NCBI GenBank assembly: GCA_023248025.1
Contig: JAHFFI010000002.1
Coordinates: 1-42,911, forward strand
Reading direction: 5' to 3'
DNA: 42,911 bases
From: Candidatus Omnitrophota bacterium
Lineage (GTDB): Bacteria; Omnitrophota; Gorgyraeia; 2-02-FULL-51-18
Shown here: positions 12,912 through 42,911 of the stretch, piece after piece
How positions within the stretch are numbered: position 1 is the stretch's first letter
Layout: every line of letters begins with the position of its first letter
The notes under the pieces: generated by a model
The model's input: only the letters and a program-made list of their open reading frames with translations
Databases searched by the model: none
Told to the model about the DNA's origin: nothing
Position numbers and translations under genes: made by a program

Positions 12912-13330
12912 CCGGACCGGGTCCGGGGGGTGCTTCCGACAGAGCCTGACTCGTAGGCGCCCTTGCCAGCTCCCGGACCCCGGAAGTGGTCCTTTGGGTC
13001 GACGTCTCAATTTCCCCTCCGAGGAAATTGAGACTCCGTTAAAGTTTGCGCGTGTGTAAGAGTAGGCTTCCATGGCGCGCAAACTTCAAAGGCGCCCCCA
13101 AGGACCACTTCCGGGGCCCTGTACCATTCGCTAATGTGTGTTCTATTTAAGACCTAAGAGAACCCGACGGGTGGCGAAGGGAATGCTCTATTTGCCCGGA
13201 GCCGCTAATAGACGGCGAGTCCGCCAGAGGACGGATCCGTCCACAAATCGCTCGTGCGATTTGATGGCGGAGACAAATAGACCTCGTCCTTTGACAGGCC
13301 CCGTCGGTTACTTGGATTAATGGGTCCGAA
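12912..13330 (-). repeat. Structured repeat element, copy A (sense is the minus strand)
   Basis: Its reverse complement is collinear with copies B, C and D and contains all conserved blocks plus the 52-nt Y-shaped insertion. It lies between the divergent dusB and typA genes, in the same sense as dusB. Confidence 0.8.
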
Positions 13331-13445
13331 AGAACCTCCTCCGGAAGCTAGCGACACTATCCGGTGGTTGAGTATTTGGGAAATATTGATTAATATGACA
13401 ATTAATTTGCTTATAGGTTGAAAATTATGGTACCTTGTACGACTT

Positions 13446-16036: not shown

Positions 16037-16457
16037 AGGCTCTATTCAATAACCTAACCGCCGGGTCCTGTCAAAGGACAAGGTCTATTTGTCTCCGCCA
16101 TCAAATCGCACGAGCGATTTGTGGACGGATCCGTCCTCTGGCGGACTCGCCGTCTATTAGCGGCTCCGGGCAAATAGAGCATTCCCTTCGCCACCCTCGG
16201 GTTGCCTTGGTCTTAGATAGAGCACACATTAGCGAATGGTCTAGGACCCCGGAAGTGGTCCTTGGGGGCGCGTTTGTCGTTTGCGAGCCATGGAGACCCA
16301 CTTTCACACACGCGCAAACTTTAACGGAGTCTCAATTTCCTCGGAGGGGAAATTGAGACGTCGACCCAAAGGACTACTTCCGGGGTCCGGGACCTGGCAA
16401 TGGGTGTTCTTCGGGAGCGGGCAGGCCCCGTCGGTTACTTGGATTGATGGACCCGAT
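16037..16457 (+). repeat. Structured repeat element, copy B (full length, plus sense)
   Basis: Both terminal inverted repeats are present (16054-16070 and 16422-16438, with their extensions). It also carries the 24-bp internal helix and the 52-nt insertion. Confidence 0.8.
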
Positions 16458-24579: not shown

Positions 24580-24937
24580 ATAGTACAGCCATTGCTGTAA
24601 CCGCCGGGTCCTGTCAAAGGACAAGGTCTATTTGTCCTCGCCGTCTATTAGCGGCTCCGGGCAAATAGAGCATTCCCTTCGCCACCCGTCGGGTTCTCTT
24701 TGTTTTAATAGAACTCTCATTAGCGAATGGTCTAGGACCCCGGAAGTGGTCCTTGGGGGCGCGTTTGAGATTGGCGAGCCATGGAAACCTACTCTTACAC
24801 ACGAGCCAATCTCAACCGAGCGAGAGATTTCCTCGGAGGGGAAATCCGAGCGTCGACCCAAAGGACTACTTCCGGGGTCCGGGACCTGGAAATTCCCCCT
24901 CTGGACAGGGTATTGGTTAGTGGGTATAATCACTTGT
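24580..24937 (+). repeat. Structured repeat element, copy C (plus sense, lacks the 52-nt insertion, diverged termini)
   Basis: It is collinear with copy B. Hairpin 1 is completely re-paired (TTGAGATTGGC/GCCAATCTCAA). Confidence 0.8.
24902..24930 (+). promoter_or_regulatory. Putative sigma70 promoter for the peroxiredoxin gene, embedded in the 3' end of repeat C
   Basis: TGGACA (24902-24907), a 17-nt spacer, then TATAAT (24925-24930). A GGAGG RBS lies at 24947-24951 and the ATG at 24960. Confidence 0.5.
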
Positions 24938-31874: not shown

Positions 31875-32735
31875 ATGAAACGGTCGATATTTTTATATCT
31901 TATTTTTTTATTTGTGTTGTCCGCGACGCCTGTTTTCGCTTTCACACTTTCTAATTTTGAGACGCCCGAAAGTGCCGTTGTTGACGCTGACGATGGTTCG
32001 TATTATGTTTCCAACATCAACGGTGAATTTGCAGAAAAGGACAGTAATGGATACATCTCAAAGATCAGCCCGGACGGCAATACCGTCATCCAAAAATTTG
32101 CAGGTTCCCGTAAAGAAGAGATGATACTTCATGCGCCCAAGGGCCTTGCGCTCATCGGCAATAATATTTTTACGGCCGACATCGATAGCGTAAAAGCATT
32201 CAATAAAGAGACCGGAAAGCCTTCAGTGTTGCTCGACCTATCTAGCTTTCATGTGAAATTTTTAAATGACTTGGCCGCAGATAGCCAGGGCATTTTATAC
32301 GTGAGCGATACCATGACGAACCAGATCTTCCGCATCGATACGAATAAAGATTACGAAACGACGCTATTCAAGGAAAGTCCGCTTCTGGCCGGCCCCAACG
32401 GATTAGTGGTTAATCCTAAAACGCGTAATCTCATGGTCGTGACCTGGGTTTCGGGCCAGATTCTTGAGATCGACCGTATGGGTGGTATTCACGTGTTGAA
32501 ACGTGGTTTTGATAAGCTCGACGGCCTTGATTATGACAACGCGGGCAATCTTTACATTTCGAGTTTTGAAAAGGGTGAGATTTTTAAGATCACTCGCATG
32601 GGTCGCGGGGCGATCACCATGACCCGGTCGGGACTGGTCACGCCCGCAGATATTTCTTATGACAGAAAGAAGGACGAGATTCTCATCCCTTCCATGAAAG
32701 GCAATACCGTTTCGACGGTTTCCGCCCGTTCCTAG
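31875..32735 (+). CDS. Secreted beta-propeller protein (SMP-30/NHL-like repeats)
   Basis: The internal ATG gives the signal peptide MKRSIFLYLIFLFVLSATPVFA. The product contains repeated ...G.LYVSD... and ...GNLYISS... blades. Confidence 0.55.
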   Translation: MKRSIFLYLIFLFVLSATPVFAFTLSNFETPESAVVDADDGSYYVSNINGEFAEKDSNGYISKISPDGNTVIQKFAGSRKEEMILHAPKGLALIGNNIFTADIDSVKAFNKETGKPSVLLDLSSFHVKFLNDLAADSQGILYVSDTMTNQIFRIDTNKDYETTLFKESPLLAGPNGLVVNPKTRNLMVVTWVSGQILEIDRMGGIHVLKRGFDKLDGLDYDNAGNLYISSFEKGEIFKITRMGRGAITMTRSGLVTPADISYDRKKDEILIPSMKGNTVSTVSARS

Positions 32736-34156
32736 AAAAGAAAACTTAAGCGAATGGCGTCGCGCGTCCAGCCGATGAGAGCATCGGGATAAAAGCCCAC
32801 ACCCACCAGTCCTATCAAGAAGAAAAATCCTACGAGCTTCATGTGAAGCGGAAGGACAATAAGGTTCGAGTCCTTTGGTTTTTCAAGATACGCGTGCTTA
32901 ACCAGTGTCAAATAGTAAAAGAGGGACACGACGCTGTTGAGTACACCCCAGAGGACTAGAAACCAGTGGCCTTGGTTCATGGCAGCTGAGAAAAGTATCC
33001 ATTTTCCGGTGAATCCGATCAAAGGTGGAATACCGGCTAACGACAAAAGACTTAAAAGCAGTATCAGCGCTAAGAAGGGTGAACGTTCAGCGAGTCCGTC
33101 AAAATGCGAAACTTGAGGATTGTCGTGATGAATAACTTTAGCCACATAGATAACGACCATAAAAGCGGCTGCGTTCATGAGACCGTAAGCTAAGCCATAA
33201 AAAAGTGCCGAAGAATAACCTTCGAAGGTCCCCGAAAGAAGTCCTACGAGAATATAACCTGCTTGAGCAATGCTGGAATAAGCCAAAAGCCTTTTTACGT
33301 CTTTTTGAACAAGCGCCACGCAATTACCCAGCGTCATGGAAATAAAGGCGAGTGCCCCCAGTATCGATACGAACGCCGGCGGAATGCCTATCCATTGGAA
33401 AATGCGGATGAGAATCGCTACGGCCGCAACTTTTGAAGCAGTTGCGATGAATCCGGTGACCGGCGTAGAGGCGCTTTCATAAGTATCAGGCGCCCAGAAA
33501 TGCATCGGAAAGCCAGAGAGTTTGAATAAGAAAGAAAACGAGACAAACAAAAGCGCCAACACAAACGCGGGTTCGGCCATTAAGAGAGGCATTTTTTGGG
33601 CAACGATGGTCAAAGAGGTGCTGCCCGCAAGACCCGTCATAAGGCTAAAGCCCCATAAGAGAAAACCGCTGGTTGCCGCGCCAAACAGAAGATATTTTGT
33701 CCCGGCTTCCGCAGACCGTTTGTTGCGGCCGAATCCCGTCAGCGTATAAAGAGAATAAGAAGAAAGCTCCATCGCAATATAAAGCGTCAGAATGTCCGCG
33801 GCGCTGGCCATCATCATGAGACCAAACGTGGATGCGCACAGGAAAAAGAAATGTTCGGGCCGCTTATCTTCCTCTATGAAAGAGGATTCATTCGAGAAGA
33901 ACGCTGAAGCCAAAAGGCACAGAGAGAGCGCTATTTTTACAATCTGCGAGAAAAAGTCGACTCGATAAGTTCCGTGGAACAGCGTACCCGAATTGGGAGT
34001 CGAATAAATGCACACACCTACGAGAATGAGCGAAGACGCAATGGCAAAAAAACGGAAGACGATGGATTCCAGAGGTTTTCCAAAAATGCTCCACACCAGC
34101 GCTGCTGCGATAACAAGCGATAAGACCGTTTCAGGAATGAAAAGCACCCAGTTCAT
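32732..34156 (-). CDS. nuoN: NADH-quinone oxidoreductase subunit N
   Basis: It is a 14-TM antiporter-like subunit and the last gene of the nuo cluster. Confidence 0.85.
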   Translation of the reverse strand: MNWVLFIPETVLSLVIAAALVWSIFGKPLESIVFRFFAIASSLILVGVCIYSTPNSGTLFHGTYRVDFFSQIVKIALSLCLLASAFFSNESSFIEEDKRPEHFFFLCASTFGLMMMASAADILTLYIAMELSSYSLYTLTGFGRNKRSAEAGTKYLLFGAATSGFLLWGFSLMTGLAGSTSLTIVAQKMPLLMAEPAFVLALLFVSFSFLFKLSGFPMHFWAPDTYESASTPVTGFIATASKVAAVAILIRIFQWIGIPPAFVSILGALAFISMTLGNCVALVQKDVKRLLAYSSIAQAGYILVGLLSGTFEGYSSALFYGLAYGLMNAAAFMVVIYVAKVIHHDNPQVSHFDGLAERSPFLALILLLSLLSLAGIPPLIGFTGKWILFSAAMNQGHWFLVLWGVLNSVVSLFYYLTLVKHAYLEKPKDSNLIVLPLHMKLVGFFFLIGLVGVGFYPDALIGWTRDAIRLSFLF

Positions 34157-35620
34157 TTACGCACCGCCCAGTAGTACTTTGGTTGAAATAGATATCCAGT
34201 GAATGAAGATCTGCGGGAAAATACCAAAGAAAAAAAGCACTCCGACTAAAATGGCGCGCGGAATGAATTGGAAAAAATTAATGTCCTTGAAGTCCGAGTG
34301 ATGATGGTTGACGGGTCCGTAAAAGGTTTTTTGTACGGCCGTCAACACATAATACGCCGTGATGAGAAGCGCCACGATAGACGAGATCCCGATCCATGGG
34401 AAAGTGCTTATGGCCGCGATGGTGACCAAAAGCTCAGCCACGAAACTGCCCATACCCGGAAGTCCCAGACCGCAAAGTCCGGCCAGGATAAAAAATGCGG
34501 ATATTTTTGGAGCCTGTTTTGAAAGGCCGCCTAGTTCATCCAACATGCGTGTGTGGCACCCATCGTAGATAAACCCGACGCAAGCGAAAAAGAGCGCCGT
34601 CATGATGCCGTGGCTGAACATTTGAAAAATGGCGCCGTTGAAGCCTATGGGATTCATCGTAGCGATACCCAAAAGCACGATGCCCATGTGGCTGACACTT
34701 GAGAAACCGATCATGTATTTGAGATCTTTCTGCTGAGTCGCCACCATGGCTCCGTATACGATGTTGCAAAGTGCCAGCACCGCAATCGTGTGCGACCAAT
34801 ATTGCGCGCCATCGGGCAAAAGGTATACGCCGATACGCAGGATGCCAAAAGCACCCAGTTTCATGAGGACACCGGCATGCAGCATGCTTGCGGCGGTCGG
34901 AGCGGCTACGTGGCCGTCCGGAGACCATACATGGAAAGGAAAGCAGGCCGCCAACACACCAAAGCCCAGGAAAAGCGCCGCGAAAAGAATGTTCTGGATG
35001 TGAGGTGAAAATTGCACCTGTTCTTTGATCTGGAGCAGGTCAAATGTGCCCGCTCCGGGCATGCTGTAGATATAAAGGAATCCCGCGAACATGAGGGCGC
35101 TCCCGAGGAGCAGGTAGAGCGTCAGTTTCATGGCGGCGTATTGCTTATTGGTGGAGCCCCACACCACGATCAATAAATACATCGGGATTACCGCTACTTC
35201 ATAGAACAGAAAGAAAAAGAAAAGATTGGTTGTCATGAAAACACCGAATACGCCGACGACGAGGAAGAGCAGGTTCGCGTAAAAGTCCTTCACGCGGTAC
35301 GTTACCGTCCACGAAACCAGCGTTCCGCAGAAGATCACGATCGCGGTGAGCAGCAGCATCGAGACGTTGAGACCATCCACGGCATTGGAGTAATGGATAC
35401 CGTAGGCTTTGACCCATTCGATGTGTTCGACGTACTGAAATTTCGGATTGGTCGGATCAAAAAGGAAGCATAGCCACACAGACAGCGCGAGACTTGCCAG
35501 CGCCGAAACGGCCGAAACGACGCGGATCACATTCTCGTATTTGCGCGGTGTGAGAAGCACAAGAAATAGTCCGATGACCGGGCAAAGCAGTATGGAGCTA
35601 AGAATAGGGAAGTGTATCAT
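34157..35620 (-). CDS. nuoM: NADH-quinone oxidoreductase subunit M
   Basis: It is an antiporter-like subunit. The start is taken at MIHFPILS, which overlaps the nuoL stop (ATGA). Confidence 0.85.
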   Translation of the reverse strand: MIHFPILSSILLCPVIGLFLVLLTPRKYENVIRVVSAVSALASLALSVWLCFLFDPTNPKFQYVEHIEWVKAYGIHYSNAVDGLNVSMLLLTAIVIFCGTLVSWTVTYRVKDFYANLLFLVVGVFGVFMTTNLFFFFLFYEVAVIPMYLLIVVWGSTNKQYAAMKLTLYLLLGSALMFAGFLYIYSMPGAGTFDLLQIKEQVQFSPHIQNILFAALFLGFGVLAACFPFHVWSPDGHVAAPTAASMLHAGVLMKLGAFGILRIGVYLLPDGAQYWSHTIAVLALCNIVYGAMVATQQKDLKYMIGFSSVSHMGIVLLGIATMNPIGFNGAIFQMFSHGIMTALFFACVGFIYDGCHTRMLDELGGLSKQAPKISAFFILAGLCGLGLPGMGSFVAELLVTIAAISTFPWIGISSIVALLITAYYVLTAVQKTFYGPVNHHHSDFKDINFFQFIPRAILVGVLFFFGIFPQIFIHWISISTKVLLGGA

Positions 35621-37518
35621 CGCAGTGTGTAGAAAATTATGAGTACGCCCGCGCCAACTGCCCACAAAAGGTAGTTCTGCAGCAAGCCGTTTTGCAGTTT
35701 GGACGCGACGCGGCCGAGCCGCATCACGCTGAACGAACTTTGATTGACCATCATTTCATTGATAATCGTGCGGTCGAACCAGTTGAGCATCTTCGCGAAA
35801 ACGAGCCCGACCCGTTTTACAATAAATCCCAGGATATCGTCCATGAAAAAATTTCTTTCAAGCACAAATTTGACGAGGTTTTTACTGGTTTGGAGTTTTT
35901 CTTCAGCGGTCGCAGGATTACGGAACTGGAAGAAAGCGATAAGTAGAGCGGCGGTGATGAGGCCCGTTGTTGTCATGAAGATCTGTTTATCAAAATGTGT
36001 TTCATGTCCGCCCAGCCAATGCAAAATCTTGAAATGGCCCACGGGTGTACCGAGCGAACCGACCCAAAGCGAAATGCCCGCCAGTGAAATGAGAGGAAGC
36101 ACACGGCAAAGCGACATAACGAAAGTTTCCTTACGCTCGTTATGGAGATCATGGCCGCCAGGCGCTTCGGACCGTGAAAATAAGATCACAAAAAGAAGGC
36201 GGAAGGAATAATAGGCCGTGAGAAAACTTACGAAAAGCGCCGTACAATAAAATACAGCGCCTCTCTCCTTAAGGGTTTCCAGTATCATGTCTTTACTAAA
36301 AAACCCGGCGAAGGGGAAGATGCCTGAAAGTGAAAGTAGTCCAATACAGAGTACGCCCATCGTAAGAATGTCTTTTTTTCCGCCTTTTTTACCAATCTCC
36401 CAGATATCATTGGAATGGAAATGATGTATGAAAGCACCGGCACTCAAGAAAAGAAGAGATTTAAAAAAAGCATGGGTTGAGAGATGAAACATGCCGGCCA
36501 CCGACGAACCGGCACCCATACTCATGACCATGAGTCCGAGCTGGCTGATCGTGGAATACGCCAGAATTTTTTTGATATCTCTCTGAATCGTAGCAAGACA
36601 GGCACCCGTAATAGCCGTGAGCGAGCCTATGACTAAAATGAAATTCATGGTGACATGAGAAGCGGAAAAAAGCGGAAAAGCACGAGCCAAAAGAAAGACG
36701 CCCGCGGCCACCATGGTAGCCGAATGGATCAATGCGCTCACCGGCGTGGGACCTTCCATGGCATCCGGCAGCCAGACATGCAGAGGAAACTGAGCTGATT
36801 TTCCCATGATACCGGTGAATACCAGTATGCCCAGCAGAGCCAGGACTCCTGGAGTCAAAGCTGTTTGTAGTTTTTGAATTTCAAAGCTCTGAAAATTAAC
36901 GGTGCCAAAAATCATAAAGAGCCAGATAACGCCAAGATAAAATCCGAGGTCTCCCAGGCGGTTCAATACAAACGCTTTTCTCGCGGCGTCTCCGGCAGAT
37001 TTTTTTTCGTACCAGAAACCAATCAGAAGATAGGAGGAAAGGCCCACGAGCTCCCAGAAAATGAACGTCTGCATAAGATTGTTTGAAAGAACCAGGCCGG
37101 TCATTGAGAATGAGAAAAGGCTTAAAAAAGCAAAATACCGCGGCCGTGAAGGGTCACTTTCCATGTAGTATGCCGAGAAGACCTGAACAAAAAAGCTGAT
37201 CACCGTGACGATGACGATCATAAGCAGGTTCAATTTATCGACGAGGAAGCCGAAGCGCATGACGTACTGCTCGATGGGGACGCCGTAATAGATACGAAAA
37301 TCCGCAACCTCGAGCCATTTGTATAAATACTGGATGGGAAGAAGGCCTTTATCATCCGCATGCACCCATAAAAGAAAGAGTGCCACCGCTGCGGCCAATG
37401 CGGATCCGAGAATACCGATGATGGGTGCAATTTTCTTGAAAGACTTTGGGCATAGCTGAATTTTTATGAACGCAAGAAGCGGCGCCAGCTGTATGACCCA
37501 AAGAAGCCAAAGTTCCAT
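35617..37518 (-). CDS. nuoL: NADH-quinone oxidoreductase subunit L
   Basis: It is a 633-aa antiporter-like subunit with a C-terminal lateral-helix extension. Confidence 0.9.
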   Translation of the reverse strand: MELWLLWVIQLAPLLAFIKIQLCPKSFKKIAPIIGILGSALAAAVALFLLWVHADDKGLLPIQYLYKWLEVADFRIYYGVPIEQYVMRFGFLVDKLNLLMIVIVTVISFFVQVFSAYYMESDPSRPRYFAFLSLFSFSMTGLVLSNNLMQTFIFWELVGLSSYLLIGFWYEKKSAGDAARKAFVLNRLGDLGFYLGVIWLFMIFGTVNFQSFEIQKLQTALTPGVLALLGILVFTGIMGKSAQFPLHVWLPDAMEGPTPVSALIHSATMVAAGVFLLARAFPLFSASHVTMNFILVIGSLTAITGACLATIQRDIKKILAYSTISQLGLMVMSMGAGSSVAGMFHLSTHAFFKSLLFLSAGAFIHHFHSNDIWEIGKKGGKKDILTMGVLCIGLLSLSGIFPFAGFFSKDMILETLKERGAVFYCTALFVSFLTAYYSFRLLFVILFSRSEAPGGHDLHNERKETFVMSLCRVLPLISLAGISLWVGSLGTPVGHFKILHWLGGHETHFDKQIFMTTTGLITAALLIAFFQFRNPATAEEKLQTSKNLVKFVLERNFFMDDILGFIVKRVGLVFAKMLNWFDRTIINEMMVNQSSFSVMRLGRVASKLQNGLLQNYLLWAVGAGVLIIFYTLR

Positions 37519-37520
37519 GA

Positions 37521-37844
37521 TTATCCTTTTAACTCGTTTACTTTATCAATATCGATCGTCTGCGACCGGCGGTGAAGCAAAAGAATAAGCGCCAGCGCCA
37601 CACAGACTTCGGCCGCGGCCAGGGCTATGATAAACAAGACGAATGTCTGGCCCGCGGCTTTGTCGGTCATCGAAAAGCGGTTGAACGCGAGAAAATTGAT
37701 GCTCGCCGAATTCAAAATAAGCTCAAGTGAGATGAGCACTCCGATGAGGTTGCGGCGCGACAGGAGACCAAAGATTCCCATTGAAAAAAGCGCCGTCGAC
37801 AGAATCAGGTAGGTCTCTAAATGATGACTGAGTGTAGAAGTCAT
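37521..37844 (-). CDS. nuoK: NADH-quinone oxidoreductase subunit K
   Basis: It is a 107-aa three-TM protein with the NuoK-like motif LISLELILNS. Confidence 0.9.
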   Translation of the reverse strand: MTSTLSHHLETYLILSTALFSMGIFGLLSRRNLIGVLISLELILNSASINFLAFNRFSMTDKAAGQTFVLFIIALAAAEVCVALALILLLHRRSQTIDIDKVNELKG

Positions 37845-37990
37845 CCCAAAACCCTCCTCGGACTGCGACGTCTTCTGACGGCCTGCGACTTTGCCGTATT
37901 CGTCGTCCCTATCGCAGAGGATAGGGCCTCCTCATCCGGCTTCGTCTCGGCTCGCCATAAGCCGTCTCGTTTACTGAGGAGAGTTTCGGG
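37845..37990 (-). promoter_or_regulatory. Structured 146-nt intergenic RNA element between nuoJ and nuoK that sequesters the nuoK SD
   Basis: In mRNA sense, CCCGAAACUCUCCUC (37990-37976) pairs with GAGGAGGGUUUUGGG (37859-37845) over 15 bp, including 2 G-U pairs. The 3' arm contains GGAGG and abuts the nuoK AUG. Internal hairpins are CGGCUU/AAGCCG, CCCUAUC/GAUAGGG and CGUC-AGAA-GACG. Confidence 0.5.
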
Positions 37991-38001
37991 ATGACTTCTG
38001 A

Positions 38002-38514
38002 TCATTTGGAAGCACCGCCCTTTTTGTCAGATAAAATGAAGGCGCCGATGATGGCGACCAAAAGTATGAGCGAGATCGCTTCGAATGGAAGCACCGCTTG
38101 GGATAAGAGTGTTCGGCCGATAGCGTCGATGGAATAGTCTCCTTCCTGAGGGACCAGATTCCAATGCGTCCGGCGGAGGATGCGCACAACGCCCAAAAAA
38201 AGGAGGCCCGATACGCCGAGTGCCGCGAAGATGCGCCTGCCGCCGATATCGATATGTTTCTGGAACATGGGACGGGAAAGCATGATGGCAAAGATAATGG
38301 CGATTGAAATAGCGCCGATGTAGACAATGACCTCCATGACGGCGAGGAATTCTCCCTGAAGATAGATAAAGATACCGGCCACGCCGAATAGACATAAGAT
38401 CAGCGCCAGCGCGTTGTAAAAAACATTTTTTAGCGCCACGGCGAGCAACCCGCCAAAAAGCGTCAAGGCCGCAAGAACCATGAAGACGATCTCTGAAATT
38501 TGAGAGGATGTCAT
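38002..38514 (-). CDS. nuoJ: NADH-quinone oxidoreductase subunit J
   Basis: It is a 170-aa five-TM protein located between nuoI and nuoK. Confidence 0.85.
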   Translation of the reverse strand: MTSSQISEIVFMVLAALTLFGGLLAVALKNVFYNALALILCLFGVAGIFIYLQGEFLAVMEVIVYIGAISIAIIFAIMLSRPMFQKHIDIGGRRIFAALGVSGLLFLGVVRILRRTHWNLVPQEGDYSIDAIGRTLLSQAVLPFEAISLILLVAIIGAFILSDKKGGASK

Positions 38515-38981
38515 GAGACGGTGGGAATCTGTGTCAAAGGTGTTTTCCTGTCTATGAATGGTTTTAAAAGATCCATGTTCATGCCGGCCTGCGTTGCCGA
38601 GACCATGTCATAATTGGGATCGTCATGTTTTAGGGCGTCGGTCGGACAGACGTCGATGCAAAGCGAGCAGAGAGAGCAAAGCATGTAATTCACATGAAAA
38701 TCGGTCAGCACACGTTTGCCGTCGACGGCGCTTTTCTGGGCGACGAGCGACATGCAGCGCGACGGGCAGGTCTTGATGCAGGCATTGCATGCGATGCATT
38801 TGTGATCGCCGTTCTTCTCATCTACGACAAACGCGATGGGACCTTTGAAACGCTTCATCGGGATGCGCTCTTTGGGATAAATGACCGTAACCGGTTTTTT
38901 AAAAAGATAACGCAGCGTGATGCCAAGGCCCACGACCAGGCTCCAGGCGCCTTCAAGGATGTCTTTAAAGTAGCGTATCAT
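38511..38981 (-). CDS. nuoI: NADH-quinone oxidoreductase subunit I (2x[4Fe-4S] ferredoxin)
   Basis: It has two CxxCxxCxxxCP motifs (CIACNACIKTCP and CSLCSLCIDVCP). Confidence 0.9.
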   Translation of the reverse strand: MIRYFKDILEGAWSLVVGLGITLRYLFKKPVTVIYPKERIPMKRFKGPIAFVVDEKNGDHKCIACNACIKTCPSRCMSLVAQKSAVDGKRVLTDFHVNYMLCSLCSLCIDVCPTDALKHDDPNYDMVSATQAGMNMDLLKPFIDRKTPLTQIPTVS

Positions 38982-39949
38982 TATGCCAGCATCTTTTGTA
39001 TCGTTAGCATGAGCGCCGTGACGAGCACATTGGCCAGTGCGAACGGGATTAATATTTTCCAGCAGAAACTCATCAACTGGTCGCTTCTAAGGCGCGGGAA
39101 ACTCCATCGCACCCACATGATAGTAAAAACGAGAAAATATATTTTGAGAACAAGCCATACGGGGCCCAACGCTTCAGGTCCTGGCCCCTGCCAGCCGCCG
39201 AGGAACAGTGTAGCCGCGATGGCCGAAGAAATAAAGATCGCCGTGTATTCCCCCAGAAAAAAAAGCGCAAAACGCATGCCGGAATATTCGGTGTGAAACC
39301 CGGCCACAAGCTCGGACTCGGCCTCTGGTATATCGAACGGCGCCCGGTTGGCTTCGGCCAGCGACGCGCAGAAGAAAATAATAAAAGCAATAGGCTGGGT
39401 GAGAACAAACCAGATCTTGTCCTGGGCCTCCACGATTCGCGTCATCTGAAGGGTCCCCGTACCCATCACGATGCCCATTGTAGAGAGAATAAGCGGAATT
39501 TCATAAGAAATATTCTGCGCAACCGCGCGCATGGAGCCAAGCAGCGCGTATTTATTGTTCGAAGACCAGCCTGCGATGAAGATGCCGATGAAGCTGATAT
39601 TCGTCAGAGAGAATACGAGCAGATACCCGACATTCAAATCTTGAATAATGAAATTCTTTGAAAGCGGAATGATGATAAACGCCGACAGGATGGGAGCAAA
39701 AGCCAGCATCGGCGCCAGCGCGTAGCCGAACTTATCCGACTGGCTGGGATGAACGAGTTCTTTGCTCAGGAGTTTAAGCGCGTCAGCGACGGTTTGTAAA
39801 AGTCCCATGGGACCCACATGCAGGGGACCGCGGCGCAGCTGAATACGGGCTGAGACCTTTCTTTCCATCCAGACGAGAAAGAGCGCATTCACGGAAACGA
39901 AAAGAATAGCGATGGTGCCGAGCAGAACGATCCTTAAGATCTCCGTCAT
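38981..39949 (-). CDS. nuoH: NADH-quinone oxidoreductase subunit H
   Basis: It is an eight-TM protein with the NuoH motifs ERKVSARIQLRRGP and PFDIPEAESELVAGFHTEYSG. Confidence 0.9.
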   Translation of the reverse strand: MTEILRIVLLGTIAILFVSVNALFLVWMERKVSARIQLRRGPLHVGPMGLLQTVADALKLLSKELVHPSQSDKFGYALAPMLAFAPILSAFIIIPLSKNFIIQDLNVGYLLVFSLTNISFIGIFIAGWSSNNKYALLGSMRAVAQNISYEIPLILSTMGIVMGTGTLQMTRIVEAQDKIWFVLTQPIAFIIFFCASLAEANRAPFDIPEAESELVAGFHTEYSGMRFALFFLGEYTAIFISSAIAATLFLGGWQGPGPEALGPVWLVLKIYFLVFTIMWVRWSFPRLRSDQLMSFCWKILIPFALANVLVTALMLTIQKMLA

Positions 39950-41574
39950 CGGTCGATCTCCGGCAGAACGATATCGATGCTTCCGAGAATAGCGATGATG
40001 TCCGACATGAGATTACCGGGAACGACGTCGATAAGAGAATTTAAATTTGAAAAAGAAGGCGTTCTGAGTTTGATACGGTATGGGTTGAGCGTGCCGTCGC
40101 TCACAAGATAAATGCCAAAACTGCCCCGCGCGGATTCCACAGCGGAATAATATTCACCCTTGGGAACGTTTTTCGGGAGTTTCCCCAAAGTGGTCTCGCC
40201 GGCCGGAAGTTTTTCCATCACCTGCGTTATGATCTTGAGACATTCCTGCATCTCGCGGAAACGCACGCGATAACGCGCATAAACGTCGCCGTCGGTTTCG
40301 GTCGGGATGTCAAAATCCAACTGCGGATAAATAGAATAGGGTTCCCCGCGGCGAAGATCGAGCGGCACTCCGCACGCGCGCAGAGACGGGCCCGTTACGC
40401 CGTAAGCGACGGCATTTTCTTTACTCATGACGCCGACGCCCCTCGTGCGGTGTTTGAAAATGACGTTTTTTGTGACTAGCGCGTCGTAATCGCGCAGGCG
40501 TTTTTTAAAATGAGGGATAAATTCTTTGATGGCAGGTATCATTTCGGCCGGAATATCCTTGTCAAGACCTCCAAAACGGAAATAATCGTAGGTCAGGCGC
40601 TCGCCGGTGGCCATTTCCAGTATATCGAGAATCTTTTCACGGTCGTCGAAGCAATAAAAGAAAGGCGTGAAGCCTCCGAGGTCCAAAAGAAAAGTGCCCA
40701 TCCACAAAAGGTGACTCGCGATGCGGTTGAGCTCGGTTGTCAGTACGCGTATGTATTCCACGCGCGGCGGGGGAGTCAGACCCATGGCTTTTTCAATAAG
40801 AAGCGCATAGCCAAAATTGTAGCTCATAGCGCCCACGTAATCGAGACGTCCCATATTGGGCCAGCAGGCCGTATAATTTTGAATCTCCATCATTTTTTCG
40901 TGATGGCGGTGCGAATAGCCAATGATAGGCTCGGCGTCCAGCAGGCGCTCGCCGTTCATGTGCAAGAGCACGCGCAAGACCCCGTGCGTGGAAGGATGCT
41001 GTGGACCGAGATTAAGATAATAGTCCTTATTATTGTGCTCAGTGACGCTCTTAGGATAGGCCACCTCGAAGCCTTCCTTGTCTTCGGCGATAAGTTTAAG
41101 CGACTGCTTTACGTCTGAACCCGCCGGCTCGCCCTTGAAGCTTTTTAAAAGAGGGTGAATGTCCGAGCTGTCGGGTAAAAGCAGGCGCTTGAGATTGGGG
41201 TGACCGACGAAATGAATACCGAACATGTCGAAAAGCTCGCGTTCGAACCAATTGGCGGATTTATAGACAGAGGAAATGCTGGGCGCCTTGTTCAGTTCTT
41301 TGGGGACGAGGATTTTCACGCAAGAGCGTTTGGCATCGTCCCAGCGGTTGAAATGATACACCAGCTCAAAGCACTCCGAAAAATCAACCGCAGTCAGAGA
41401 CTCAAGAAAATAGTTTTGAGATAAAAATTCGGCCGCGACGTCGAATATTTTATCTGCGGATACGACGGCTTCAAAAATTATGCCGGACGTTTTGAAATCC
41501 TTCGTATTAAATTCCTCAAGGCTAATAATGTCCTTGAGCCAGACTTGAATATCGTTTGCAGTTGTGGCCGGCAT
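39946..41574 (-). CDS. nuoCD: Fused NADH-quinone oxidoreductase subunits C and D
   Basis: The 542-aa product has an N-terminal NuoC-like part (ANWFERE.FDMFGI.F.GHP) and a C-terminal NuoD part (LNLGPQHPSTHGVLR ... DIVLPEIDR). Confidence 0.9.
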   Translation of the reverse strand: MPATTANDIQVWLKDIISLEEFNTKDFKTSGIIFEAVVSADKIFDVAAEFLSQNYFLESLTAVDFSECFELVYHFNRWDDAKRSCVKILVPKELNKAPSISSVYKSANWFERELFDMFGIHFVGHPNLKRLLLPDSSDIHPLLKSFKGEPAGSDVKQSLKLIAEDKEGFEVAYPKSVTEHNNKDYYLNLGPQHPSTHGVLRVLLHMNGERLLDAEPIIGYSHRHHEKMMEIQNYTACWPNMGRLDYVGAMSYNFGYALLIEKAMGLTPPPRVEYIRVLTTELNRIASHLLWMGTFLLDLGGFTPFFYCFDDREKILDILEMATGERLTYDYFRFGGLDKDIPAEMIPAIKEFIPHFKKRLRDYDALVTKNVIFKHRTRGVGVMSKENAVAYGVTGPSLRACGVPLDLRRGEPYSIYPQLDFDIPTETDGDVYARYRVRFREMQECLKIITQVMEKLPAGETTLGKLPKNVPKGEYYSAVESARGSFGIYLVSDGTLNPYRIKLRTPSFSNLNSLIDVVPGNLMSDIIAILGSIDIVLPEIDR

Positions 41575-41577
41575 TGG

Positions 41578-42237
41578 TTAACTCTGAGGCGCTGCCGGGG
41601 GAGGCACCGCCGGAGCGGCGACGACTGCGGGTTTTCTGAATTCGACGCGTGAAATGGCATTTTTGTATTCGGCGGGACGGCTATCCTGTGAATCATGAAC
41701 GACAGCCGGCATCATGACGCCTTGGGCTTTTCCGGATTTAATTTGTTTTTCGAGTTCGAGAATACCGGCAATGAGCGCCTCCGGGCGCGGCGGACAGCCG
41801 GGCACGTAAACATTAACCGGGATAATTTTGTCTATGCCTTCTAAAATCCCGTATTGGCCGGGATATTTGAACGGTCCTCCCGCTGTAGCGCAACCACCCA
41901 TCGCGATCACATATTTGGGAGAGGGCATCTGGTCGTATAAAGTTTTGATGCAAGGCACCATTTTTCTCGAGATGGTGCCGGCGACTATCATAAGATCCGC
42001 CTGGCGAGGCGAGGGACGGAATACGCCGAAACCGAAGCGGTCCATGTCGAAACGGGCGGCGCCTCCCGCCATGAGCTCAATCGCGCAGCAGGCCAGTCCA
42101 AACGTGAGCGGCCAAAGCGAATTGGCGCGAGCCAGATTCAGCACGTCTTCAACACGGAAAAGGTTTAAAACTCCCGGAGCGGGCGAGTAAGTTTCGGCGT
42201 TTACAGGCATGGTTTCGTGCATCGGCGTCATTTCCAT
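41578..42237 (-). CDS. nuoB: NADH-quinone oxidoreductase subunit B (with a Pro/Ala-rich C-terminal tail)
   Basis: It has the N2-cluster motifs [12 protein letters not shown] and YVPGCPP. The exact start is uncertain. Confidence 0.9.
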
Positions 42238-42593
42238 TCAAATAGTCCTTTTTTCCAACCGTAAAGAATGGCGACGGAGAGGATGGCCAGGAACATGGTG
42301 ATCTCAAAAAGCGCTACGGGACTGGCAAGGGTGCCGTAAATTTTTAAAACAGGAAAAAGAAATACGGTTTCTACGTCGAAGGCGATGAAAATCAGAGCGA
42401 AAAGATAGTAATTGATGTCAAACTGCACCCATGCGCTGCCTATGGGGACTTCGCCGCTTTCGTAGGGGTCGTTTGCACGACTGCCGAGACTGCGATGACT
42501 AATGAGAAGCGGAAGGATCGTGTTTACAACGACGAAACCAGCGCCAATTACAAGGAAGCCAAGAACGTAAGCGTAATTATGAAGCAAAGACAT
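42228..42593 (-). CDS. nuoA: NADH-quinone oxidoreductase subunit A
   Basis: The start is taken at MSLLHNYAY, giving 121 aa. The longer ORF-track start at 42644 would lie inside the promoter. It is a three-TM protein with the motif YESGE. Confidence 0.85.
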
Positions 42594-42620
42594 ACCATCG
42601 CACCAAGTTTTATGGGTGTC

Positions 42621-42649
42621 AGTATATAAAAAATGCACACGCAAGTCAA
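42621..42649 (-). promoter_or_regulatory. Sigma70 promoter of the nuo operon
   Basis: The minus strand reads TTGACT (42644-42649), a 17-nt spacer, then TATACT (42621-42626). Confidence 0.65.
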
Positions 42650-42669: not shown

Positions 42670-42911
42670 ATAGTCTATCAATCCGCGTAACCGACGGGGC
42701 CTGGCTCGGGCGCGCCCTATTTGTCCTCGCCCTTACGGGCTCCGGGCAAATAGGGACCGCACCACTCGCCACCCGTCGGGTTGTCTGGGTCTTAAGATAG
42801 AACACTCTATTAGCGAATGGTCTAGGACCCCGGAAGTAGTCCTTGGGGGCGCGTTTGTCGTTTGCGAGCCACGGAAACCTACTTTTACACACGAGCAAAC
42901 GACAATCGAGC
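42670..42911 (+). repeat. Structured repeat element, copy D (plus sense, truncated by the window end)
   Basis: It is collinear with the first ~240 nt of copies B and C. It begins about 20 nt beyond the nuo -35 and runs in the divergent orientation. Confidence 0.8.

Follow-up and report, generated by a model that had tools for sequence, protein, structure and literature searches.

The closest described systems are the Correia/NEMIS repeats of Neisseria and the Stowaway-type MITEs of the Tc1/mariner-IS630 kind. These are repeats of 100-200 bp without a transposase, with terminal inverted repeats and with a TA at both ends. Their sites are dispersed and are found both filled and empty, often in transcribed regions next to genes, and their transcripts form a long RNA hairpin. 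The properties of TA-flanked MITEs in bacteria have been described in PMC3184786 and PMC10969869. The repeat analysed here, at the nuoJ/nuoK junction of the window (the whole stretch of 42,911 nt), resembles these elements in all of these respects. The likeness is one of properties and not of a demonstrated sequence relationship, and the hosts here are Omnitrophota. Four further points set it apart: a genome holds very few copies (1-4), compensatory changes maintain the pairing over the full length and not just at the termini, an outward Shine-Dalgarno sequence (SD) with an ATG stands at both termini and is repeatedly used as a gene start, and no partner transposase was found.

Several other repeats share single traits with it. 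[quoted passage not shown] REP2, however, has no terminal inverted repeats, carries a promoter and is a 5'-UTR-like upstream module rather than a transposon inserted into existing start regions, whereas the element in the window is a symmetrical palindrome working from either end, and a promoter scan of this copy gave nothing convincing on the sense strand. The RPE of Rickettsia are palindromes of about 150 bp that survive in protein-coding genes by respecting the reading frame (PMC10969869). An RPE is an in-frame peptide insert within one continuous protein, whereas the insertion here comprises 164 nt, which is not a multiple of three; the upstream ORF ends in the element and the downstream one restarts at the element's ATG. 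[quoted passage not shown] The ERIC/IRU repeats of enterobacteria are likewise imperfect palindromes (about 127 bp) that are co-transcribed within operons; their hosts are unrelated, and this likeness too is one of description, not of sequence. To our knowledge, ERIC does not donate start codons. Compared with the Correia/NEMIS-Stowaway group, REP2 and RPE, the element is distinct in its combination of features: it is a symmetrical palindrome with a bridging frame free of stops, and either end reads SD-ATGA outward and TAG inward. Literature searches returned nothing on MITEs of Omnitrophota, nor on MITE termini that donate an SD and ATG.

The features of the locus are listed in Table 1. A preliminary description of this DNA had noted that nuoJ and nuoK are 157 nt apart while at the remaining junctions of the nuo operon the genes overlap or lie no more than 3 nt apart, and both statements are correct. 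It had placed a structured insert at 37845-37990, closed by a 15-bp helix with three or more hairpins inside. The insert is indeed structured, the actual unit being slightly larger at 165 nt. The closing helix is real and buries the nuoK SD, and it extends over 24 bp rather than 15. Both of the proposed 15-nt arms were found within it, including two G-U wobbles that become mismatches on the opposite strand. Inside the helix, the direct repeat GUCGCAG is present twice, but the interior folds as a single interrupted rod with one apical loop instead of several hairpins.

Table 1. Positions of the features at and around the nuoJ/nuoK junction, in the numbering of the window.
Feature	Position	Strand	Details
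nuo operon, nuoA-B-CD-H-I-J-K-L-M-N	32732-42644	-	11 subunits; nuoCD fused; without nuoE/F/G
nuoJ	38002-38514	-	170 aa; stop UGA 38002-38004 overlaps the ancestral nuoK AUG 38003-38005
Bridging ORF	37841-38005	-	54 codons + stop; opens at the ancestral nuoK AUG, closes at a UGA that overlaps the new one; AUGA at either end
Palindromic MITE copy	37835-37999	-	165 bp; core 37837-37998; right flank TA 37835-37836; left flank CA 37999-38000
5' terminal inverted repeat ('anti-SD' arm)	37976-37999	-	AGAAGUCAUCCCGAAACUCUCCUC; found by inverted repeat search
Apical hairpin of the rod	37907-37926	-	CCCUAUC-CUCUGC-GAUAGGG; from the MFE fold; compensatory changes across copies
3' terminal inverted repeat	37836-37859	-	SD GAGGAGGG at 37852-37859; 7-nt spacer; new nuoK AUG 37842-37844; then ACU UC
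nuoK	37521-37844	-	107 aa; begins MTS-TLSHH...; first 2.7 codons from the element

For positions 37835-38010, the folding energy is -89.9 kcal/mol on the sense strand (z = -9.2 relative to dinucleotide shuffles) and -77.4 kcal/mol on the antisense strand (z = -5.6). The arms of the window copy are 92% complementary over the 24 bp, and the helix contributes about -42 kcal/mol (-42.3 as a duplex). Besides the SD, it takes in the start codon of nuoK and the 8 nt that follow. In the transcript of the operon, the computed probability that the segment from SD to AUG is unpaired is about 0.001 and the cost of opening it about 39 kcal/mol; therefore, free 30S subunits cannot be expected to use this site. 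When the 5' arm is blocked in silico, the unpaired probability rises only to about 0.22. According to these calculations the SD occlusion is physically real and must shape the translation of nuoK. It is nevertheless a by-product of the inverted termini of the element and not a device specific to nuo. No intrinsic terminator or attenuator was found within the element on the minus (sense) strand, where the 3' arm is followed by ACACUCAGUC, and an Rfam 15 scan of positions 37400-38400 at E <= 10 gave only chance-level matches (E > 2).

That the spacer is an inserted mobile repeat is nearly certain. Of the readings offered in the preliminary description, the one of a small inserted structured repeat is borne out by the multiple copies, by their sharp borders with TA flanks and by the orthologous junction, from which the element is missing in all relatives examined. 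The borders were set by aligning the window copy with the three other copies of the same genome and with copies from other genera. All four copies of this MAG (1.46 Mb, 84% complete) are 73-98% identical: besides the one in the window, they lie on contigs C67 (98% identical), C52 (84%) and C34 (with a 42-nt internal deletion). The aligned copies read TA-GAAGTCATCCC...GGGATGACTTC-TA. Most copies are flanked by TA on either side; that of the window has CA on the left and TA on the right. In a sister subfamily, the termini read GGGATAGGCTC, with ATA in place of ATG.

The element is palindromic over its whole length. Among 13 full-length copies, the rod fold is kept and the 24-bp terminal inverted repeats are conserved with compensatory changes; 97% of the alignment cells are paired, and 26 of the 60 pairs have changed on both sides, a result approached by none of 500 shuffles and by no slid control. 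In element orientation, G-U pairs outnumber A-C pairs by 26 to 8 cells, which is at most a hint of strand asymmetry, given that many cells are shared by descent and that copies lie in both orientations relative to the transcription of the host. Insertions are found at unrelated loci and in both orientations relative to host transcription. With its length of 165 bp, no transposase (the sole ORF is the 54-codon read-through frame), its terminal inverted repeats, and dispersed copies with filled and empty orthologous sites, the element has the make-up of a MITE. The full explanation, i.e. a MITE of the TA-flanked, hairpin-forming kind that landed at the nuoJ/nuoK junction and donated a start to nuoK, with translational coupling proposed across it, is one in which we place good confidence. 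As TA is self-complementary, a duplication of these two bases is indistinguishable by sequence from an extension of the terminal repeats; the 2-nt duplication is the sole model that restores frame and ATGA overlap at nuoK, ruvB, recG, the pstA-like gene, yraN and the NUDIX-like gene.

Copies occur in 10 of the 32 genomes of the family, covering 8 of 24 genera, and on three metagenome contigs, with 81-95% identity. The NuoK proteins of element-bearing genera are only 60-72% identical to that of the window, which argues that the element spreads faster than the genomes diverge. The copies in G043, G023 and L063/L064 are 93-95% identical to the window copy, and the NuoK proteins of those genera only 60-70%. 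This suggests a recent horizontal spread among co-resident Omnitrophota. In view of the TA flanks, an autonomous partner would presumably belong to the IS630 family. DDE_3 (IS630-type) transposases occur in 3 of the 32 genomes (G042, G047 and G017), none of them between matching termini, in a set of MAGs that are fragmentary and may miss a partner.

Some matches were set aside. The 13-mer terminus matches on contigs G000:C60, G013:C8 and G047:C226 are put down to chance, without SD-bearing element sequence upstream, and so is a 20-nt fragment on G000:C79, which lies within a coding region and reads ATC rather than ATG. The contig L098 (ENA k141_1382187, 863 nt, from another sample) has the end of nuoJ and the element joined to a different right flank with the terminus GGGATGGCTTC. 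It was taken for a join made in assembly because of the repeat, or for the product of recombination between two copies, and was left out of the evidence. The copy at L100:938-1105 lies 17 nt upstream of a gene for an Rrf2 regulator, to which it is not fused, and its left flank ATGACTCT-TA resembles the element's own terminus ATGACTTC-TA.

The site before the insertion can be reconstructed. At least 14 genomes of the family have an ATGA overlap of nuoJ and nuoK without a spacer. The closest NuoK homologues were sought among 5.8 billion proteins, and the contigs of the best three (84, 81 and 79% identical, all 106 aa) have the same overlap. Excising 164 nt from the window (the 162-nt core plus one 2-nt flank) leaves AAATGAT-TA-CACTCAG, in which the nuoJ UGA again overlaps an ATG; from there, the frame of nuoK reads MITLSHHLETYL.... 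The NuoK protein obtained in this way, MITLSHH..., has 106 aa, matching the length in the three homologues. Since the excision restores both overlap and frame, the element entered nuoK at the boundary of codons 2 and 3, and its target was the TA that spans them. A comparable pair of sites is found at ruvA/ruvB, where G043 carries the element and its congeners have an empty ATGA junction.

The comparison of spacers across related genomes that had been proposed as a check thus found none in relatives, except in G021, and both outcomes are among those that the preliminary description had named as speaking against its regulatory reading. Its nuoJ/nuoK junction (L020:1345-1500, contig C14) holds an unrelated palindromic repeat of about 100 nt, which duplicates the ATGA and is present in at least 25 copies in that genome (87-100% identity). 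Two different repeats therefore occupy one junction in two genera, which argues for tolerated selfish DNA and against an RNA specific to nuo.

The element end very probably supplies the present start of nuoK. Read outward, each end of the element has the form GAGGAG(G/A)G-N7-ATG-ACT-TC, followed by the TA flank. In the window, the 3' end provides GAGGAGGG, seven bases and ATG ACT TC, which together with the TA flank are in frame with nuoK. The insertion thus swapped Met-Ile for Met-Thr-Ser behind a new strong SD and left the frame intact. The next in-frame methionine of nuoK is residue 22, within the first transmembrane helix, so there is no other plausible start. In an independent ENA assembly, the bridging ORF is called with 4-nt overlaps on both sides (nuoJ, a 54-aa ORF and a 107-aa nuoK), and the insertion is therefore not an assembly artefact. 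The 54-codon ORF has homologues in other element copies and nowhere else. In annotation, the 'structured intergenic RNA' of the nuo operon is best labelled as a mobile repeat and NuoK given an element-derived start.

The main interest of the element lies in the donation of start codons across the family. Nine of 29 termini with an ATG or GTG run outward straight into a real gene, and two further cases were found later, giving 11 in total. The genes concerned are nuoK, ruvB, recG, a BPD_transp_1 permease (pstA-like, downstream of a pstC-like gene), yraN/UPF0102, a PMT_2 glycosyltransferase, a HAD hydrolase, orf124, coaC (Flavoprotein), an AMP-binding enzyme and a NUDIX-like gene. Pfam domains of the fused genes begin 4-14 residues past the element ATG. 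At least ten genes other than nuoK in related Omnitrophota MAGs need the same relabelling, as otherwise odd small ORFs or wrong starts are called. Ends of the ATA type are never fused to a gene start (0/5), compared to 10/14 of the ATG type (Fisher p = 0.011); the ATA-type copies lie 16-133 nt from gene starts. A transposon can thus enter the first codons of housekeeping genes and the coupled junctions of a 1.5-Mb genome without killing them.

A bridging ORF is present in six of the insertions, i.e. in nuoK, ruvB, recG, the permease, yraN and the NUDIX-like gene. In these six cases the old ATG lies 5-11 nt upstream of the element core, often overlapping the stop of the upstream gene, and all six bridging frames are open up to a terminal TGA that overlaps the new ATG. 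Genes that run into a terminus with their 3' end stop at a TAG formed jointly by the flank and the first element base. The coaC and AMP-binding cases are remnants in which only the 41-42-nt end with SD and ATG has been kept and the anti-SD arm is lost. Such remnants would be predicted for a start that the gene depends on and a hairpin that burdens it.

Based on this arrangement, a route by which nuoK could be translated is proposed. The 24-bp helix in the operon mRNA (-42 kcal/mol) would shut free 30S subunits out of the new SD and AUG. Ribosomes that have finished nuoJ would re-initiate at the retained old AUG (38003-38005). By translating the 54-codon ORF through the element, they would melt the 5' arm out of the helix and free the 3' arm. 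Termination at the UGA overlapping the new AUG would then lead to a restart on nuoK, so that the translational coupling that existed before the insertion would be rebuilt across 164 extra nt. The chances that this mechanism, which is reasoned from the layout of the frames, is the correct one are about even. If so, the locus provides a natural setting in which re-initiation across a -42 kcal/mol helix can be tested. The insert itself is selfish DNA tolerated at a gene boundary and not a regulator evolved for complex I. It is tolerated there because it brings its own translational punctuation, namely a TAG inward and an SD with ATGA outward.

Alternatively, nuoK might be initiated directly at the element SD and AUG without use of the bridging ORF, helped by ribosomes terminating on nuoJ or by co-transcriptional folding. 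A ribosome halted at the nuoJ stop has an established footprint, and this stop is only 3 nt from the base of the helix; on termination, the ribosome should thus melt several of the pairs there, opposite the AUG. The SD GAGGAGGG is also a strong one. However, this SD pairs 17-24 nt into the helix, out of reach from the nuoJ stop. Nor would this model explain why, in six independent insertions, the old AUG has been retained and the frame is open. We therefore regard direct initiation as unlikely, and re-initiation through the bridging ORF as the preferred route.

The insertion could also be a recent polar loss of function, in which nuoK-N are poorly translated and the cell relies on a second complex-I-like operon. 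Such an operon exists: a second nuoK paralogue, 42% identical, lies on contig C75 of the same genome (G000 C75:270-572), as it does in most relatives, and could mask a loss of function. An opening cost of about 39 kcal/mol for the SD and AUG would fit poor translation. Furthermore, a copy that is 98% identical to another one is young, possibly too young for selection to have acted. Yet the downstream nuo ORFs are all intact and the arrangement recurs in the independent assembly. Older copies (81-85%) likewise precede intact single-copy housekeeping genes (ruvB, recG, coaC and the pst permease), and the remnants keep exactly the end with SD and ATG. For these reasons, we consider a loss of function improbable, even for this young copy.

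Correia/NEMIS and ERIC repeats have been reported as processing or stability sites on mRNA, and a double-strand RNase could in the same way cut nuoA-J from nuoK-N within the hairpin, the cleavage freeing the SD. A near-perfect duplex of 24 bp is a textbook substrate of RNase III, which the closing helix resembles. A review puts forward the hypothesis that RNase III processes a MITE-borne stem in Coxiella (PMC5896051). The lineage of the window, however, has no detectable RNase III. Neither PF14622 nor PF00636 was found in its genome, and PF00636 was detected in only one of the 32 family genomes (16 exceed 90% completeness), while control genomes did score. Either the enzyme has truly been lost or it has diverged very far; its apparent lack may partly explain why such long mRNA duplexes are tolerated. 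In addition, a cut within the closing helix would free the SD arm only once the two strands had come apart. The processing role raised in the preliminary description is thus very unlikely. A dedicated cis-regulatory RNA of nuo, such as an SD-sequestering switch or thermometer that sets the translation of nuoK-N apart from that of nuoA-J, has next to no chance of being right. In its favour are the full sequestration of SD and AUG in a very stable helix and the many compensatory changes that keep the fold across copies. Against it are a junction free of the element in every relative examined, the closest included (one has an unrelated repeat instead), the same element at unrelated loci in both orientations, the absence of an Rfam match and a 24-bp helix that, at -42 kcal/mol, is far beyond opening by a reversible switch.

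At the level of the element, the ATG-type subfamily could have been shaped to be harmless at the gene boundaries of very compact genomes, which we put forward only tentatively and with more doubt than belief. Three features would contribute to this: an inward stop formed by TA and G in one phase, a second phase that is stop-free over the full length of the element in both orientations, and an outward strong SD-N7-ATGA. Wherever the element entered a gene within its first codons, or an ATGA-coupled junction, a stop, a bridging ORF and a restart would then result, with coupling preserved. In the 165-nt type, 17 of 20 combinations of copy and orientation have an open bridging frame, while the other frames have 1-3 stops each. 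A rough count places this at about p = 0.05, with copies that are related and a palindrome whose openness is correlated between orientations, and the stop-free bridging frame is suggestive only. If the idea is true, the element would be a portable translational-coupling cassette on a transposon, and would explain the replaced start codons of essential genes.

The gene-side flank of fused copies was compared as well. In G043, G023, G004_C14 and L099, the T of this TA has often changed, giving TCA, TCC and (twice) TCG, all of which encode serine. In G003, the A has changed instead, and intergenic copies retain TA on both sides. Although the numbers are small, this fits a gene-side flank that would be evolving as the wobble position of a translated codon. 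Apart from this element, the window contains four copies of a larger repeat family (about 360-430 nt) in both orientations, at positions 12960-13400, 16055-16456, 24597-24893 and 42673-42911.
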